36,827 nt of DNA from Promethearchaeota archaeon (GTDB taxonomy: Archaea > Asgardarchaeota > Lokiarchaeia > Sigyniarchaeales > SOKP01), in the NCBI GenBank assembly GCA_016839585.1, contig JAEOTZ010000054.1, forward strand, positions 1 through 36,827. Reading direction: 5' to 3'. The translations under genes were made by a program, and so were the position numbers. Below, one piece after another: positions 2,224-11,340 of the stretch. Below the pieces are notes generated by a model. The model was not told where the DNA came from, made no database searches, and saw only the letters and a program-made list of their open reading frames with translations. Numbering within the stretch: position 1 is the stretch's first letter; the number at the start of each line of letters is the position of its first letter.

Positions 2224-4047
2224 CTACTTCTTCTTCTCTTCAAGAGTACTCTTCGTATCGTAGCTATTTTTTAATGATTTTCCTGATTCCCATTCTTTTC
2301 TAAGAATAAATTTCTGAATTAATTCGTTTGCATTTTTTGGTAATTCTTCTTTAAATTCTATATATCTTGGAACCATAAAATAGGCCAAGTTTTGTTGTAG
2401 AAAATTGTGAAATTCTTTGTGAGTAATCGAAGCTCCTTTTTGAATTACAGCACATATTTTTAAATGATTTTCGGAGGATTTGCTATCAGAAACTTCAAAA
2501 ACAGCGCTTTCGACTATAAGTGAATGTGAATTTGCGACTATTTCGATATCCACTGCAAAAAATATCTCCTTTTCTCTATGAATCATGTCTGATTTCCTTC
2601 CTAAATAATATATGAAACCTTCATGGTCTGCATATCCAAAATCGCCAGTGTAAACCCATCGATCTTCTCCTTTTCTTGTTATTGTCTCTTCTTGTAAGTT
2701 ATAGTACTCAAGTTCAAAAGGAAGTCTTGTTCTTGCACAGATTTCACCAATATGATCTCGTCCAGGAGGAAGTTCTTTTCCTTCTGAATCAACAATTTTA
2801 ATTTCAACGCCTCGTGCTGACTTTCCGATAGATCCTAGTTTTCCCCCTTTGGAACCTTCGTTATTTATAGTAAAACCAATACCCTCAACAAGAGACCACA
2901 TTTCAATTATTTGAATTCCAAATCTCCTTTCGAAGGTATCCCATATCTTTTTTAAGGCACCTGCACCGAATGCATATTTAATTGAATGATTTCTATCAAT
3001 TTTTGATGGCAGTTGATTTACAAGCATTGTCAAGTGTGCTCCATAATAACAAAAACCATCAGGTTTATATTTTTCAATATCACTCCAAAAAGTTGAAACA
3101 TCAAATTTCTCTGCGATTATTATCGATCCGTTATGATACATTATTGGAATTATCAAGAAATATCGTTCTAATCCTTGAAATAACGGTAAGGGACAATAAA
3201 ATTTATTAATATTATCGCCAAATCCTAAATCTTTCAATTGCCTTCCTACACTAATTCCTGACAACGTGAAATAGTTCCTATATAGCACTCCTTTTGGAAT
3301 TCCTGTAGTTCCTGATGTATAGGATATTTCAAGAGGATGAAAACTATTCATATGAATATTAGGATTCTCTAAATTTTCAGAAAAGACTTCTGTAAAACTA
3401 GCATATTTATCCTCGTATTTATAATCATTTGGTGCGTTTCGGATAAAAATTTTCTTAATTTTGGGTAAATTTTCGTAAATCTCCTCAACATTCGCAAGAT
3501 ATATATAATCAATAATTAAAATTTCTGAATTGCTATTTTTCAATACATATTCTAGTAAATTCTTTTTTAATAAGTAACTTATTGGTACAAACACGCTACC
3601 GGTTTTTGCAATGGCGAACCAACAAAATAGAGCCCCTGGATTATTTGGAAATATCAAGGAAATATTAGGATTTTTCAATTTTAATTTTTTAATTTGTTTT
3701 ATAAGTCCATTAGCTATCTGATTTGAAATTATATTTACATCTTCATACGTATAAACCTCATTATGATAATAAATGAATGGCTTGTCTTTATTAATTAATG
3801 CTTTACTTTCTATTATTTTTGGTAGTGTAGCATCTTCAATATCGTAAACTTTTGTTAGGTCACTTAAGTTATAGATTTTTCGAATTTCCAAGTGCTCGCC
3901 TTTTAATTCTATCACGACTTCTTCTTTGTCTCTAAAAGGAAAAGCACTATCTTTAGCAATATTACTGGGAATATAGACCCAAAAACTGTCATATTTACGG
4001 TTTCCCGATTTTTTCTTCGAAATTTTACCTTTTCCAGTTTTTATCAT
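2224..4047 (-). CDS. AbrB-like DNA-binding domain fused to a CaiC-like AMP-binding (ANL) acyl-CoA ligase, catalytically degenerate
   Basis: Residues 1-57 contain 'FWVYIPSNIAKDSAFPFRDKEEVVIELKGEHLEIRK' (archaeal AbrB pattern). The ANL motifs YTSGTTGIPKG, YTGD and GRKSD follow. The A10 motif reads LPKNANELIQK with no catalytic Lys. Confidence 0.8.
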   Translation of the reverse strand: MIKTGKGKISKKKSGNRKYDSFWVYIPSNIAKDSAFPFRDKEEVVIELKGEHLEIRKIYNLSDLTKVYDIEDATLPKIIESKALINKDKPFIYYHNEVYTYEDVNIISNQIANGLIKQIKKLKLKNPNISLIFPNNPGALFCWFAIAKTGSVFVPISYLLKKNLLEYVLKNSNSEILIIDYIYLANVEEIYENLPKIKKIFIRNAPNDYKYEDKYASFTEVFSENLENPNIHMNSFHPLEISYTSGTTGIPKGVLYRNYFTLSGISVGRQLKDLGFGDNINKFYCPLPLFQGLERYFLIIPIMYHNGSIIIAEKFDVSTFWSDIEKYKPDGFCYYGAHLTMLVNQLPSKIDRNHSIKYAFGAGALKKIWDTFERRFGIQIIEMWSLVEGIGFTINNEGSKGGKLGSIGKSARGVEIKIVDSEGKELPPGRDHIGEICARTRLPFELEYYNLQEETITRKGEDRWVYTGDFGYADHEGFIYYLGRKSDMIHREKEIFFAVDIEIVANSHSLIVESAVFEVSDSKSSENHLKICAVIQKGASITHKEFHNFLQQNLAYFMVPRYIEFKEELPKNANELIQKFILRKEWESGKSLKNSYDTKSTLEEKKK

Positions 4048-4066: not shown

Positions 4067-4099
4067 TTTACTATTGTAAATAAATAATTCCTAACGTAA
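4067..4099. promoter_or_regulatory. Two TTAC-N4-GTAA boxes upstream of the AbrB-ligase gene
   Basis: TTTACTATTGTAAA at 4067-4080 has perfect arms. TTCCTAACGTAA at 4088-4099 has 1 mismatch. The boxes are spaced 20 bp apart, 21-52 nt upstream of the ATG at 4047. Confidence 0.6.
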
Positions 4100-4128: not shown

Positions 4129-6135
4129 TTACTTTAAAGGAATTTCATCATATTCTTGTTTTATTAGAGGGAATCTGTCAAGATTATAATGAGGAAAATA
4201 AAGAGAAAAAGTGAATTCCTTTTGAAATGATGGTAATGATGCGATTTCTCTATACTTGATCTCATAGGCGATCTTATTTGCTAGATATCTTTGCTCAATA
4301 TCTTTTATAAATAATTGTGCCCCCATTCCTGCTGAATTTCCAATCTGGAAAATGGAGTTTTGTTCAACTTCAGGGAATAAACCAATAAAAGCAGCATTTT
4401 TTTTATTGATATAAGTTCCAAAGGCTCCTGCTAAAAGAACTTGTTCAAGAGATTCCTTTTTTTTATGTTCCATTTCAAGTAATAAATTAGCTGCAGATAA
4501 AAATGCACCTTTCGCTAGTTGAAGCTGATAAATATCTTTATGAGAAATTGTGATTTCCTTAATATTATTATCATTAATATTTTTTTGATATTGTTCTTTG
4601 TCCCATTCGGCTTTATATATAATATAATGGTATCCATCTTCCCTTTTTACAACACGACGATGTTTCATTACTTTTTCTGATTTGATATTAAATTTTCCCG
4701 CACGCATGATGATATTACATTTCAGCATTTCGGCTATAGTGTCAATGAGCCCTGAACCACACAATCCAAGTGGTTTTATGTTTCCTATTACGCCTATTGA
4801 AGGTTCCAAAGTATTTCTATCAATTTTGACTGATTCTATTGCTCCTTCAGAAGCTCGCATTCCATGTAAAATATGAGCACCCTCCAAAGCCGAGCCAGCA
4901 GCACATGAACATGTAACTAATCCTTCATTATTTCCCAACACAAGTTCACCATTAGTACCAATATCAATTAAAAGAGAATATTTATCGTATGTATTGATTT
5001 TAGATGAGATTATACATCCAATTGTGTCTGTTCCTACGTAGCCAGCAATAACAGGAGGAGAATATACATTTACATTGGGATTACATTTTATTCCAAGCAT
5101 ACCCGCACTTACATTAATTGGGGCTTTAAATACTGGAATGTAAGGTGAAACAGCTAAAAATTCTGGGGTTATTCCAAAAAATATGTGATGCATTCCAGTA
5201 TTCCCTACAACAGAAATATCTTTAACACACGAAATAGAAATGTGAGCTTTATCACAACAATCCTCAAGTATATAATTTATAGCATTAATCACTAATTCTT
5301 TTGCTTTATGAATTGCATTATTTTTTACGATATAGGTAATTCTTGAAATAAGATCTTCACCGATAGCCACTTGAGGATTTAACATTGCAGAAACCGCTGC
5401 AATTTCGCCTGTTTTTAAACAAATTAAATATCCAACAATAGTAGTAGTTCCAATATCGATAGCTAATCCAAAAATCTTATTAATTTTATCTCCGGCATCA
5501 ATATCATAAAGAATCCACGGATCTTCCAATGAGAGCTTTCTAAAAAAAGCTGTAACAACACCATCTTCTTTTCTCATAATATGTGGTAATTTTTTAATAA
5601 TGTTATATAGAATATCATTTACATGAAATAGTGTGTGATTTTCATTTATTTTATAATTACTATTTCTTTCTATTATGCCCTCAAATAAACCAGATAAATC
5701 ATTTCTTGGATTACTTAAATCCGCAGAGGTGATCTTACACAGCTGTGAAGTTATTCCTAGATGAAATTTTTCATTACTTGTTATTCCGAGAGATTCTAAA
5801 TCAGCATCTACTAAAATTCTAATTCCTCTCGAAACTAATGAGTCAGTTAAAAAAACTCTTAAATCTCTAAAAATTTTAGTTTGACATGCTAACCTGTATC
5901 CTTCTAATATTTTTTGGCTACTCAAAAATTTTTTTTCTTTTTCTGATGGTTCTGAAATTTTTGGATTAGGATCTAAAACACGAATAATACATTTTCCACA
6001 TGTTCCCTTACCTGCACATAACGCACCTATGGGAAAGTTCAACGCTAAAAGTGATTCATAAACTGTTGAACCCTCAACAACATTTATTCGTTTAGATATT
6101 GGCTCCAAAATGAGTGTAATTCTCTTATTCCCCAT
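4129..6135 (-). CDS. ATP-dependent reductive activator of corrinoid proteins (RACo/RamA-like ASKHA protein, DUF4445) with N-terminal 2Fe-2S domain
   Basis: CAGKGTCGKC...RLACQ 2Fe-2S motif, followed by DIGTTT, DIGTNGE, CAAGSALEG, GLCGSG and LAGAFG. Confidence 0.92.
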   Translation of the reverse strand: MGNKRITLILEPISKRINVVEGSTVYESLLALNFPIGALCAGKGTCGKCIIRVLDPNPKISEPSEKEKKFLSSQKILEGYRLACQTKIFRDLRVFLTDSLVSRGIRILVDADLESLGITSNEKFHLGITSQLCKITSADLSNPRNDLSGLFEGIIERNSNYKINENHTLFHVNDILYNIIKKLPHIMRKEDGVVTAFFRKLSLEDPWILYDIDAGDKINKIFGLAIDIGTTTIVGYLICLKTGEIAAVSAMLNPQVAIGEDLISRITYIVKNNAIHKAKELVINAINYILEDCCDKAHISISCVKDISVVGNTGMHHIFFGITPEFLAVSPYIPVFKAPINVSAGMLGIKCNPNVNVYSPPVIAGYVGTDTIGCIISSKINTYDKYSLLIDIGTNGELVLGNNEGLVTCSCAAGSALEGAHILHGMRASEGAIESVKIDRNTLEPSIGVIGNIKPLGLCGSGLIDTIAEMLKCNIIMRAGKFNIKSEKVMKHRRVVKREDGYHYIIYKAEWDKEQYQKNINDNNIKEITISHKDIYQLQLAKGAFLSAANLLLEMEHKKKESLEQVLLAGAFGTYINKKNAAFIGLFPEVEQNSIFQIGNSAGMGAQLFIKDIEQRYLANKIAYEIKYREIASLPSFQKEFTFSLYFPHYNLDRFPLIKQEYDEIPLK

Positions 6136-6241
6136 ATGAGTATACCTTATAGATTAACATTCTCTTTATAAGAAACAACTTTGCTTACTTATAAATTCAT
6201 TAAAATAAACTCAAAATAGTTAAAGAAATGATTAATTTTTA

Positions 6242-6904
6242 TTAATTCCTTAACCATTTATCGATAATATCAACACCTTCTAAAGCGTCTTTTGCGTAAG
6301 CATCTGCTTTTGTTTCTTCTGCGATTTCAGGCGATACAGCAGCACCTCCCAAAATCACTTTTACCTTATTTGCTAATTCTCCATTTTTTAATAAGGACAC
6401 TGCTCTTTTTATGAAGGGTTCCCCAGAAGAAAGAAGATATGAGATACCAATAACTTTAACATCTGGCATTCGAGCAGCTTCTTCAAATTTTACAGGTTTC
6501 ACATCTATTCCAAGGTCGATAATATCCATACCATAAGATTTCATTAACGCGATTAGAATATTTTTACCCAAATTATGAATATCACCTTCAATTGTCCCGA
6601 TAACTACTTTTCCTGAATAATTCCTAGCTTTAGCTAAACTCCTTCTAGTTTCCTCATCTATACATAGGATTTCTCCCTCCAGAGCTTCTGCCGCTAAAAT
6701 AAGCCCCATTTCTCCCGATTCCGCCAATCCCTTTAAAATACCTTTTTTTATTATTTCGATTACTGGGACTCCTACATCTATTGCTTGCTTTATTGTATCT
6801 TTCATCGAAAAAAAGTCAAGTGAACTAACCGCTTCAATAACGTTATTAATATAATAAAAATGATTTTTTGCTTTCTTTTTATTTTCTAAACTCACTTTTT
6901 CCAT
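6242..6904 (-). CDS. Corrinoid (B12-binding) protein, MtbC/MttC/MetH-cap-like
   Basis: 'GTIEGDIHNLGKNI' DxHxxG motif, 'DLGIDV', 'VILGGA', 'ADAYAKDA'. A GAGGT Shine-Dalgarno favours ATG 6904 over 6925. Confidence 0.9.
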   Translation of the reverse strand: MEKVSLENKKKAKNHFYYINNVIEAVSSLDFFSMKDTIKQAIDVGVPVIEIIKKGILKGLAESGEMGLILAAEALEGEILCIDEETRRSLAKARNYSGKVVIGTIEGDIHNLGKNILIALMKSYGMDIIDLGIDVKPVKFEEAARMPDVKVIGISYLLSSGEPFIKRAVSLLKNGELANKVKVILGGAAVSPEIAEETKADAYAKDALEGVDIIDKWLRN

Positions 6905-6944
6905 TATCAAAATTACCTCTCTCATTTCTTAATAATTGATATTA

Positions 6945-7730
6945 TCAAATGATTAAAACGATACCATGCCAAACAACATAGGGAACAGATTCCTTTGGGT
7001 GCTCGGGATTAATTACAAATGGTGGTTTTTCTCCACATTTAACAGCTGTAGCAAATATATCCACTCCACATGCCTCTAGTGAAGGTCTAGCTCTTAAATA
7101 CTGCCGGCACATTTGATTATCGAGCACAGGACAGGGGGGTATTTTTTTTTGTTGCATTAATTCTTTAAAATATTCTGGAGAAAAAAATCCACAACCAACA
7201 CAAGGCCCACCTTTAAATCCCATAGCAAGATAATATCCCAAATATGTTGCTTCTGCTTCTATCATTGAGACCATTTGATTTAATAAATTTACATCTCCCT
7301 GGACACCGAGAAGAATTCCGGGAAAAATATGGTTTTGTGTCGGTGGATAAAATGTAATTAAAATTGCATGATTATAACAACTAACAATTTCTCTCATCTC
7401 TTCGGTAGTTGGAGAATGTGGAGGACAATTTATACTAGTTCCGTAACCAAAACACACAGGAATTCTACATTTCCACCGTACGCGTGGATCTATTACAATT
7501 TTATCTGTTGTTATTAATTTGGCATGACCAGTAGCTTTCATTTTTGATTTTGTAATTATTTGATCTATGATTTTATTAGATCGTTCAAGGAGCTCAAGAA
7601 AGATCTTTTCATCAGGTTCAACTTTTATTGGAGATGGTGGCCTATCTTTCTTTTTTGGTAATACTCTCCGCCATTTGAAAGATATTTTAGACCATTCTTT
7701 CTCAACTTCAGGTATCAATTTCTGTGCCAT
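6945..7730 (-). CDS. DUF2284-family Cys-rich predicted metal-binding protein
   Basis: 'DPRVRWKC...C..YG...NCPP', 'GGPCVGC', 'RPSLEACGVD' and C-terminal 'GIVLI'. Confidence 0.8.
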   Translation of the reverse strand: MAQKLIPEVEKEWSKISFKWRRVLPKKKDRPPSPIKVEPDEKIFLELLERSNKIIDQIITKSKMKATGHAKLITTDKIVIDPRVRWKCRIPVCFGYGTSINCPPHSPTTEEMREIVSCYNHAILITFYPPTQNHIFPGILLGVQGDVNLLNQMVSMIEAEATYLGYYLAMGFKGGPCVGCGFFSPEYFKELMQQKKIPPCPVLDNQMCRQYLRARPSLEACGVDIFATAVKCGEKPPFVINPEHPKESVPYVVWHGIVLII

Positions 7731-7794: not shown

Positions 7795-8000
7795 TTACGT
7801 ACGTAAAAATCTTTCTATTGTAGTAAAAAAATATTAAGTAATTATGAAACCATCATAATTTATAAAACTTATTTGTTTTTTACGTACGTAAATCATAATA
7901 ACAGGAATAAAATAATAATTAGTTAATCAGCTTAAAAAAAAAGAAGTATTGACAAGATTATATGTAATATTTACGTTTTATGATAATTACATTTGTAATT
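7795..8000. promoter_or_regulatory. Three TTAC-N4-GTAA palindromes in the divergent intergenic region upstream of the corrinoid operon
   Basis: TTACGTACGTAA at 7795-7806 and at 7880-7891, and AATTACATTTGTAATT at 7985-8000. Confidence 0.7.
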
Positions 8001-10626: not shown

Positions 10627-11340
10627 TTATTTCTTTTCTATTTTTTTAAATTCTGGTAGGTTATCTGGTGGCCATGCTCGAGCTGTACTACCATCTTTTA
10701 TATATCGGAAATCGCATAGAGGAGCGCCATTTCCTATAGTTTGAGTACGTTTAAAGCCGTATCCGTAGGCTTGAGCCATTGCAAAATCGCTTATGCATAC
10801 AATTGGCATAAAATGTTCAGCACCTTGATTTTTATAAAACTTATAAACACCGCATTCATAATAATCTCTGCCATAGGTAAAAGTTTCGCCATCTCCTTCA
10901 ACGAACTCAAATACCCAATCACCTGGGTACTTGCGTAGTTTAGAAATTTTAGCATTTTCTTTATCTCGGTTTATATATTCTTCGCTAAAAATATCATCTG
11001 TAGGCGGTATAAATTTATAAAATGCTTCGAATAAATCATAAGTCAATTTACCAATCTTATAAAAGTCTAGTCCTTCTTTCTCAAAAAATCGAAGGAATGG
11101 TAGTAAAAGCGCACTGTTAATAAGATCTTCAGTGAGCCTATTATTTTTTCCTCCAACATAAGGGATTTGAGGCAATAACATCTCAAAATCTTTTCGTGCT
11201 TTAGGGATAAATTCTTCAACCTTAACTTCGCCAAAATTTTCAATTAGAATACTTTTTACTATTTGTGTTGCCGCACCAAAAAGTCTCATTAGAGATCTCT
11301 TATTTTTAATATAATATTCTTTTTCTTCTTCATTTGGCAA
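10627..11340 (-). CDS. L-2-amino-thiazoline-4-carboxylic acid hydrolase-family protein
   Basis: 'ECGVYKFY', 'CISDF', 'RTQTIGNGAPLCDFRY'. Confidence 0.8.
   Translation of the reverse strand: MPNEEEKEYYIKNKRSLMRLFGAATQIVKSILIENFGEVKVEEFIPKARKDFEMLLPQIPYVGGKNNRLTEDLINSALLLPFLRFFEKEGLDFYKIGKLTYDLFEAFYKFIPPTDDIFSEEYINRDKENAKISKLRKYPGDWVFEFVEGDGETFTYGRDYYECGVYKFYKNQGAEHFMPIVCISDFAMAQAYGYGFKRTQTIGNGAPLCDFRYIKDGSTARAWPPDNLPEFKKIEKK

Follow-up and report, generated by a model that had tools for sequence, protein, structure and literature searches.

Does a protein that carries the fold of an acyl-coenzyme A (acyl-CoA) ligase behind a DNA-binding-type domain, and that lacks the catalytic lysine of such ligases, still work as an enzyme? 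The question is raised by a gene for 607 amino acids (aa) on the minus strand of contig JAEOTZ010000054.1 (assembly GCA_016839585.1) from a Promethearchaeota archaeon of the Lokiarchaeia; the whole stretch analysed here, 36,827 nucleotides long, is called the window. An initial annotation, made from the sequence, had described the ligase domain as a catalytically dead pseudoenzyme kept under selection as a sensor. The outline of that proposal is supported by our data, the word "dead" is not. With moderate confidence we favour the view that the domain, a member of the ANL superfamily, is an enzyme-derived ligand-binding module without useful turnover and the sensor of an autoregulated one-component regulator. 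A sensor role in a DNA-binding regulator fits because catalytic residues have been lost under purifying selection, nucleotide- and Mg-binding residues have been kept, the N-terminal domain is AbrB/MazE-like, and a palindrome upstream of the gene is conserved. Retained in the window protein are the fold, the P-loop, the aromatic residue and Glu of motif A5, the Asp of A7 and the Arg of A8 (nucleotide and Mg binding). Lost are residues for adenylation (A10 Lys/Arg, A5 Thr) and for the thioester site (A8 Lys, A8 Gly-Gly, A4 His). From these features we infer ligand binding by the ANL domain and DNA binding by the N-terminal domain. The parts of the gene are these:

2224–4047, minus strand: whole open reading frame (ORF), 607 aa, with AbrB/MazE-like N-terminal domain, linker and two-subdomain ANL fold (ORF, Pfam, AlphaFold2 and Foldseek)
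3868–4047, minus strand: N-terminal domain, aa 1–60, beta-beta-alpha-beta-beta, AbrB/MazE/VapB-like (AlphaFold2, Foldseek and VIA-align)
2623–3795, minus strand: ANL N-terminal subdomain, aa 85–475 (PF00501; substitution rates)
2278–2622, minus strand: ANL C-terminal subdomain, aa 476–590, bearing A8 and A10 (PF13193; substitution rates)

Fold and active-site motifs of the fusion protein

A Pfam scan of the 607-aa protein gave no match within the first 70 residues; behind them PF00501 (AMP-binding) matched aa 85–440 (1e-48, 166.5 bits against a cut-off of 29.9) and PF13193 (AMP-binding_C) matched aa 501–574 (1e-6, 29.9 bits against a cut-off of 24.5). The AlphaFold2 (AF2) model of the full protein has a mean predicted local distance difference test score (pLDDT) of 88.3 and matches ANL enzymes in Foldseek with template-modelling (TM) scores of 0.80–0.85. 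By its Pfam gathering scores and its two-subdomain fold the protein belongs to the ANL superfamily (class I adenylate-forming). In NCBIfam it is closest to PRK06187, PRK06155 and CaiC-type ligases (best models NF004837 and NF004808), and it stays far short of all curated cut-offs, among them the whole-protein ones of PRK06155 (NF004808; 258.6 against 722 bits) and CaiC (NF005947; 215.8 against 651 bits). With these canonical ligases, and with DmdB, 4CL2 (5BSM/5BSW) and AuaEII (4WV3), which are close by structure, it shares the fold, the P-loop, the A5 Glu, the A7 TGD, the A8 Arg and the hinge Asp. Unlike them it has Leu at A10, Val at A5, His and Glu-Lys at A8 and Gln at A4, and its N-terminal DNA-binding-type domain is an extra part that is not known from any characterised ligase. 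The model superposes on adenylate-forming conformers (4wv3, 5bsw, 4fut, 4g36) at 3.6–4.2 Å and on thioester conformers (5bsr, 3a9v) at more than 10 Å; from this match we infer that the modelled A10 loop, with Leu576, points toward the active site.

The ratio of nonsynonymous to synonymous substitution rates (dN/dS) against four orthologues (78–84% identity; the comparison leaves out the row of locus L092) is 0.12–0.29 for the N-terminal domain, 0.12–0.19 for the large and 0.10–0.20 for the small ANL subdomain. Since these values are similar, the C-terminal ANL subdomain is as constrained as the rest of the protein. An artefact or a pseudogene is ruled out by the intact ORF, the dN/dS of about 0.15 and more than 100 orthologues.

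The active-site motifs are given below, with homologue counts from an alignment of 103 full-length fused Asgard homologues (7 basal Arg forms and 96 derived forms) and from an outgroup of nine sequences.

3289–3321, minus strand: A3 P-loop YTSGTTGIPKG, fully canonical (translation; G246, P251 and K252 invariant in all 103 fused homologues)
3175–3177, minus strand: A4, Gln291 at the His position (PLPLFQG; His in 9/9 outgroup and 4/7 basal sequences, Gln in 77/96 derived sequences)
2884–2898, minus strand: A5 WSLVE, Glu388 retained, Val387 for Thr (translation and alignment)
2638–2652, minus strand: A7 YTGDF, ribose-binding Asp469 retained (Asp in 102/103 homologues)
2560–2601, minus strand: A8 GRKSDMIHREKEIF, Arg484 and hinge Asp487 retained, His490 for Lys, Glu492-Lys493 for Gly-Gly (translation and alignment; substituted columns in the 81st–100th percentile of variability in the fused family)
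2311–2343, minus strand: A10 LPKNANELIQK, Leu576 (codon 2320–2322) at the catalytic Lys site (translation and alignment)

All the motifs that the initial annotation had read (A10 with Leu for the catalytic Lys, A5, A8, the P-loop and TGD in an intact ORF) were recovered by translation, and for A10 and A8 alignments to solved ligases agree. In phmmer, "elpknaneliqkf" falls on "elpktatgkiqrf" of the anthranilate-CoA ligase AuaEII (4wv3) and "grksdmihrekeif" on "drlkelikykgfqv" of tobacco 4CL2 (5bsw), in both cases with top posterior probability. Therefore Leu576 corresponds to the A10 Lys, Glu575 to the Gly that precedes this Lys in canonical ligases, His490 to the A8 Lys, Lys493 to an A8 Gly and Val387 to the A5 Thr. 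Among the hallmarks of active ANL enzymes, the A3 P-loop and the A7 TGD Asp are present in the window protein, and the A5 Thr, the A8 Lys and Gly and the A10 Lys are missing. E. coli CaiC, whose name some databases give to the fused family, reads LPRNCSGKIIRK at A10, with the Lys in place. The genome holds 15 PF00501 matches, and the window gene scores weakest among the intact, full-length ones. The A10 Lys (as G/A/M-K) is present in every one of the genome's twelve other full-length ANL paralogues with a canonical C-terminus, which argues that its loss is no chance oddity of a single gene. A further ANL-like frame of the same genome (G000:C53:4130-5080, minus strand; 692 aa) has one in-frame TAA within its PF00501 match and may be a broken gene or two genes.

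Catalytic residues across the fused family

The homology search returned about 110 proteins of about 600 aa with 41–93% identity, all with the same N-terminal extension. Below these fused proteins, identity falls sharply to about 30%, at unfused bacterial ligases of about 526 aa. The close homologues all come from metagenome-assembled genomes of Promethearchaeota / Lokiarchaeia. Their distribution is patchy: a search of 400 genomes of the phylum detected the gene in 55, of which 51 belong to the family of the window genome. Residues at the key positions are kept as follows:

P-loop Thr247 (Ser/Thr): basal Arg forms 7/7, derived forms 70/96
P-loop Thr248 (Ser/Thr): basal Arg forms 7/7, derived forms 83/96
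A5 Thr/Ser: basal Arg forms 7/7, derived forms 7/96 (14/103 overall)
A5 Glu: basal Arg forms 7/7, derived forms 96/96
A7 Asp: basal Arg forms 7/7, derived forms 95/96
A8 Arg: basal Arg forms 7/7, derived forms 61/96
A8 Lys/Arg: basal Arg forms 7/7, derived forms 21/96
A8 second Gly: basal Arg forms 7/7, derived forms 35/96
A10 Lys/Arg: basal Arg forms 7/7, derived forms 2/94

Measured by column entropy within the ANL domain, the lost positions lie in the 77th–100th percentile, the A8 Lys column at the 100th, and the kept positions in the 0th–16th. Judged from the alignment, conservation covers the contacts to adenine, ribose, Mg and phosphate, and the parts that stabilise the adenylation transition state or form the pantetheine tunnel vary freely. 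The A4 His, present throughout the outgroup, is a further loss in the window protein beyond A5, A8 and A10. Lys residues that might compensate were considered in K579, three positions beyond A10, and K571; both are equally conserved in canonical relatives (K579 in 9/9), which rules them out on sequence grounds. The loss of the canonical catalytic set is thus real, family-wide and under purifying selection, and the absence of the A10 Lys extends to the fused homologues at large.

The A10 column of the 103 fused homologues reads L39 F25 E18 M8 R7 K2 S1 T1. In the maximum-likelihood tree the fused family is monophyletic (Shimodaira-Hasegawa-like approximate likelihood-ratio test, SH-aLRT, 100) and nested among bacterial ligases; those around it read Glu-Arg or x-Arg at A10 (e.g. 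Siminovitchia PKTATERVQK), the basal branches of the family are the seven fused members with an Arg, and all non-basic A10 forms fall into a single clade with support 97. On this alignment and tree, the ancestral A10 residue of the fused family would be Arg, not Lys. Glu-Arg is already found at A10 in the basal fused forms and in the bacterial relatives nearest to them, so the actual step there was from Arg to Leu or Phe; the change from Gly-Lys to Glu-Leu implied by the initial annotation holds against the generic consensus and not against these relatives. That annotation had also made its case depend on whether fused homologues retain the Lys, and here the answer is divided. Seven of the 103 keep an Arg and look like working enzymes, and two (P0079, P0082) have a Lys in an eroded active site. 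The latter lie deep in a derived subclade, their sister forms carry Thr or Glu at the position, and both are without the A8 Arg and the A5 Thr; their Lys seems to have arisen by drift at an unconstrained site and not to have been retained.

What such substitutions do to activity has been measured in DmdB (6IHK/6IJB), whose numbering was mapped onto the window protein by motif spacing and the aligned ranges of the PDB match. Relative activity there is 57% for K523R, 1.6% for K523A, 1.4% for K523E, 4.3% for R432A, 5.6% for K438A, 3.6% for G440P and 2.7% for G441P, and K523A was crystallised in the adenylate-forming conformation with AMP and substrate bound (PMC6850173). Because the A10 Lys-to-Ala/Glu mutants keep about 1.5% activity, "dead" is too strong for the window protein and "crippled" fits better; of the claim of a catalytically dead ligase, the loss of the catalytic residues stands. 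By analogy with these mutants we expect both half-reactions to be crippled in the window protein and its binding of nucleotide and acid to persist; the basal Arg-type fused members are probably working enzymes, since K523R keeps 57%.

Residual activity could also matter in its own right. The domain might carry out a slow, essentially single-turnover adenylation, with a tightly held acyl-AMP as the signal that tunes DNA binding and with the eroded A8 blocking transfer to CoA. E. coli BirA, a biotin protein ligase and repressor in which the ligand state of the adenylation site controls operator binding and biotinyl-AMP is the corepressor, is the precedent. Such chemistry would be served by the P-loop, fully canonical in the window protein and mostly kept in the family, and by the near-invariant A5 Glu (Mg; 103/103) and A7 Asp (102/103). 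It would also agree with the thioester-step residues, led by the A8 Lys column, being the most degraded, and with the remaining activity of about 1.5% in A10 Lys-to-Ala mutants (PMC6850173). Both residues that stabilise the adenylation transition state (A10 Lys/Arg, A5 Thr) are, however, absent, and A10 tolerates Glu in 18 members, where it would repel the alpha-phosphate; we consider this account unlikely.

Several genomes have two or three diverged fused copies: L137 and L138 lie about 18 kb apart in G336:C126, and further cases are G246, G260, G264 and G277. In G246 one copy is Arg-type (L105/L124) and the other more diverged. The multiple copies hint at a division of labour between paralogues.

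The N-terminal domain and the TTAC-N4-GTAA palindrome

Modelled on its own with AF2, the N-terminal domain forms a beta-beta-alpha-beta-beta half-barrel with a pLDDT of 89.2. Sso7c4, VapB, C56, SpoVT, AbrB-N and MazE make up the first ten matches in VIA-align and almost all of those in Foldseek (VIA-align Z 2.8–4.8, root-mean-square deviation 1.8–3.9 Å over 43–52 residues). These are swapped-hairpin DNA-binding domains, several of which were solved on operator DNA. In the model the domain therefore folds like AbrB/MazE, which bears out the AbrB fusion assumed by the initial annotation. Profile searches of the PDB with 7 and with 60 N-terminal domain sequences gave nothing significant, only MazE/PemI at E about 1. 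A stand-alone relative of the domain, P0144, matches PF04014 at E = 0.005, below the cut-off. The profile of the domain also finds about 200 clusters of stand-alone proteins of 55–90 aa (P0123-P0270) without a Pfam model, with the pattern GKG...Y..FIYIP..VA.DS.FPF...V.V.I...L.I.K; perhaps they form a branch of small AbrB/MazE-like proteins that has not been described.

Candidate operators for such a domain are found in two promoter regions of the window:

4068–4079, no strand: perfect palindrome TTACTATTGTAA, 21–32 bp upstream of the start codon of the fusion gene (same place in orthologues of all clades examined)
4088–4099, no strand: another copy, 20 bp farther upstream, with a single mismatch (genome scan for pairs)
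7795–7998, no strand: perfect palindromes, three in number, at 7795, 7880 and 7987, in front of the DUF2284, corrinoid protein and RACo genes (motif scan)

The palindrome has four matches in the window against 0.56 expected, all four in these two promoter regions of the cluster. It occurs 63 times in the 3.45 Mb genome, where the sole intergenic cluster of sites is the one upstream of DUF2284 and the pair of a perfect and a one-mismatch site at 20 bp spacing, upstream of the fusion gene, is unique. A second cluster of palindromes, on contig C89, lies inside ORFs and is probably due to chance. Seven orthologous genomes show the same spacing of 20 bp (L092/L111, L093/L113, L095, L109, L114, L115, L116), and one to two copies are kept upstream of DUF2284 in 11 orthologous loci. 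Such conserved pairs lend indirect support to the prediction that the N-terminal domain would bind specific DNA sequences as a dimer or tetramer. In 20 further loci from all clades, 35 matches were observed against about 5 expected in all; 27 of the 35 are located no more than 180 bp upstream of the fusion gene or of DUF2284, and one or more of these upstream matches occur in 18 of the 20 loci. This conservation is not mere sequence inheritance, because the central four bases differ between clades. The palindrome is also present at the Arg-type basal loci L102 and L106; DNA binding by the N-terminal domain would therefore predate the catalytic loss.

At two loci an identical palindrome, TTACGTTCGTAA (L135 4589, 8021; L136 3830, 7950), is found near the fusion gene, in the divergent promoter that separates an ABC permease gene from an SBP_bac_5 binding-protein gene, and also in front of a 171-aa ORF just downstream of it, which suggests that this clade has a different regulon.

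How might such a protein work? Occupancy of the ANL pocket would alter the binding of the N-terminal AbrB/MazE-like domains to paired TTAC-N4-GTAA operators, the likely ligand being ATP or AMP plus an organic acid, an acyl-adenylate or a CoA ester. As the candidate operators would cover the promoter of the fusion gene itself and that of the adjacent DUF2284, corrinoid protein and RACo genes, the protein would act as an autoregulated one-component switch. Its evolution may have begun with a bacterial-type ligase with an A10 Arg that acquired a DNA-binding domain; the basal fused forms have the appearance of bifunctional enzyme-regulators, and a single later lineage would have lost the basic A10 residue once, after which the remaining catalytic residues drifted.

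Neighbouring genes and known systems

The genes around the fusion gene bear on two other accounts. In one of them the protein would be a true acyl-CoA ligase or a bifunctional "trigger enzyme" whose A10 Lys is substituted by a non-canonical residue or by a partner protein. Two-subunit CoA-transferase genes recur next to the corrinoid cluster. Genes for the a and b subunits adjoin orthologues in L096, L133 and L140, and the b subunit gene alone does so in L129 and L132. Settings differ in more distant members: the fused gene comes directly behind CoA-transferase genes in L096, stands beside a HpaB / 4-hydroxybutyryl-CoA dehydratase-like gene in L097 and lies between canonical ligase paralogues in L121 and L123. 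Enzyme function would also agree with the strong purifying selection on the C-terminal subdomain and with basal Arg forms that look fully competent. However, at least five catalytic positions are altered together (A4 His, A5 Thr, A8 Lys, A8 Gly-Gly, A10 Lys), and among close relatives the altered columns vary freely, whereas a new catalytic solution would be expected to be fixed. K579 and K571 do not compensate, as said above, and the score against NF004808 drops from 400 bits in the basal P0077 to 259 in the window protein. We judge this account quite improbable.

In the other account the protein is no transcription factor at all: the N-terminal domain would serve as an adaptor that binds proteins, and the corrinoid protein and the RACo activase would have the ANL fold as their scaffold or chaperone. 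Synteny of the fusion gene with those for DUF2284, the B12-binding protein and RACo holds in 11 of 11 orthologous loci with at least 71% identity and enough flank, and a RACo homologue also stands beside the Arg-type gene of L124. This homologue (L124 6050-7885, plus strand; 35% identity to that of the window) is tail-to-tail with the fused ligase, so the association with RACo recurs outside the corrinoid-cluster clade. Divergent members without nearby corrinoid genes nevertheless have the palindrome before the gene, and the fold matches of the N-terminal domain are DNA-binding swapped-hairpin domains, several solved on operator DNA; we give the adaptor account hardly any credence.

Several observations weigh against the sensor view that we favour. 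In 70–83 of the 96 derived forms, and fully in the window protein, the P-loop still has its Ser/Thr residues for the beta and gamma phosphates, which goes beyond the needs of AMP binding alone and points a little toward ATP chemistry of some kind. A residual activity of 1–2% survives mutation of the A10 Lys in real enzymes (PMC6850173), and for one 4CL such a mutation is reported not to have abolished activity completely (PMC5239791). A neighbourhood with genes for CoA-transferase subunits and canonical ANL paralogues would equally suit a metabolic enzyme. Finally, the structural Z-scores of the N-terminal domain are modest, at most 4.8, as can be expected because a 60-aa monomer of an obligate dimer was compared, and PF04014 gave no match at E up to 10 in any of seven N-terminal domains tested.

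The closest known kind of fused protein is the enzyme-derived one-component regulator, represented by BzdR of Azoarcus sp. CIB. BzdR's DNA-binding domain is of the helix-turn-helix type. According to its published description, BzdR likewise joins a DNA-binding domain to an enzyme-derived effector domain, the loss of whose activity is essential for the regulatory role, and its inducer is an acyl-CoA (PMC3602430). Of the features of this type, the window protein shows the architecture and the loss of catalytic residues, and its locus the conserved operator-like sites; effector binding and control of nearby genes are predicted. Unlike the archaeal window protein, with its AbrB-like domain and ANL sensor, BzdR is by the same account bacterial and has a shikimate-kinase-like sensor, and engineered chimeras there stand against natural intermediates, the Arg-type fused forms, here.

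SpoVT of Bacillus subtilis (2W1T) resembles the window protein in having an AbrB-type swapped-hairpin N-terminal domain (2w1t matches ours with Z 3.9) and a C-terminal sensing domain; unlike it, SpoVT senses through a GAF domain, which has no enzyme fold, and beyond the fold the two are not similar in sequence. The fold of BirA is class II aminoacyl-tRNA synthetase-like, with a winged helix, and BirA is fully active, whereas the window protein has lost catalytic residues; for the basal Arg-type members, by analogy, BirA is probably the closest working model.

Our literature searches found no published description of the fused Asgard family or of an ANL-fold sensor, and no pseudoenzyme described for the ANL superfamily. 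Pseudoenzymes are well studied among kinases and phosphatases. To our knowledge, almost no regulators of Asgard archaea have been characterised. We see an even chance that the family provides the first transcription factor with an ANL-fold sensor, the first ligand-sensing archaeal one-component regulator of the AbrB type and a lineage that preserves every stage from enzyme to regulator. These stages would be a free bacterial-type ligase with an A10 Arg, a fused and apparently active "trigger enzyme", and a fused pseudoenzyme with drifting catalytic residues. If so, one-component regulators of prokaryotes would gain a new sensor fold and Asgard archaea a testable operator-regulator pair, and in this genome an organic-acid or acyl-nucleotide signal would govern how a corrinoid protein and its ATP-dependent reductive activase are expressed. 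The series from Arg-type to Leu/Phe/Met/Glu-type forms would then be a natural record of a change from enzyme to regulator that has so far mostly been followed in engineered chimeras, as with BzdR (PMC3602430). When the metabolism of Lokiarchaeia is reconstructed, members of this family, annotated at about 600 aa as "AMP-binding protein" or "carnitine-CoA ligase", should be left out of the count of acyl-CoA ligases.

Some observations on neighbouring genes remain to be recorded. The cluster at 4129–7730 (minus strand) encodes a corrinoid protein, the RACo activase and the Cys-rich DUF2284 protein, with no recognisable methyltransferase gene in the cluster; Lokiarchaeota have been reported to have genes for Mto-type corrinoid O-demethylases (PMC8359953). 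In a "Met-type" clade (L121 4729-16609; L123 1-13037) two to three canonical ANL paralogues (28–30% identity) lie within 17 kb, and the fused pseudo-ligase may there be a regulator among ligase genes under its control. Two window genes, at 1577–2119 and 10627–11340 (both minus strand), encode a DUF6125 protein (1.4e-10) and an ATC_hydrolase-like protein (1.6e-15), families that are possibly related; only the closest relative (L092) likewise has a DUF6125 gene behind its fusion gene. The window has a GC content of about 30% and also encodes an Asgard-type small GTPase.

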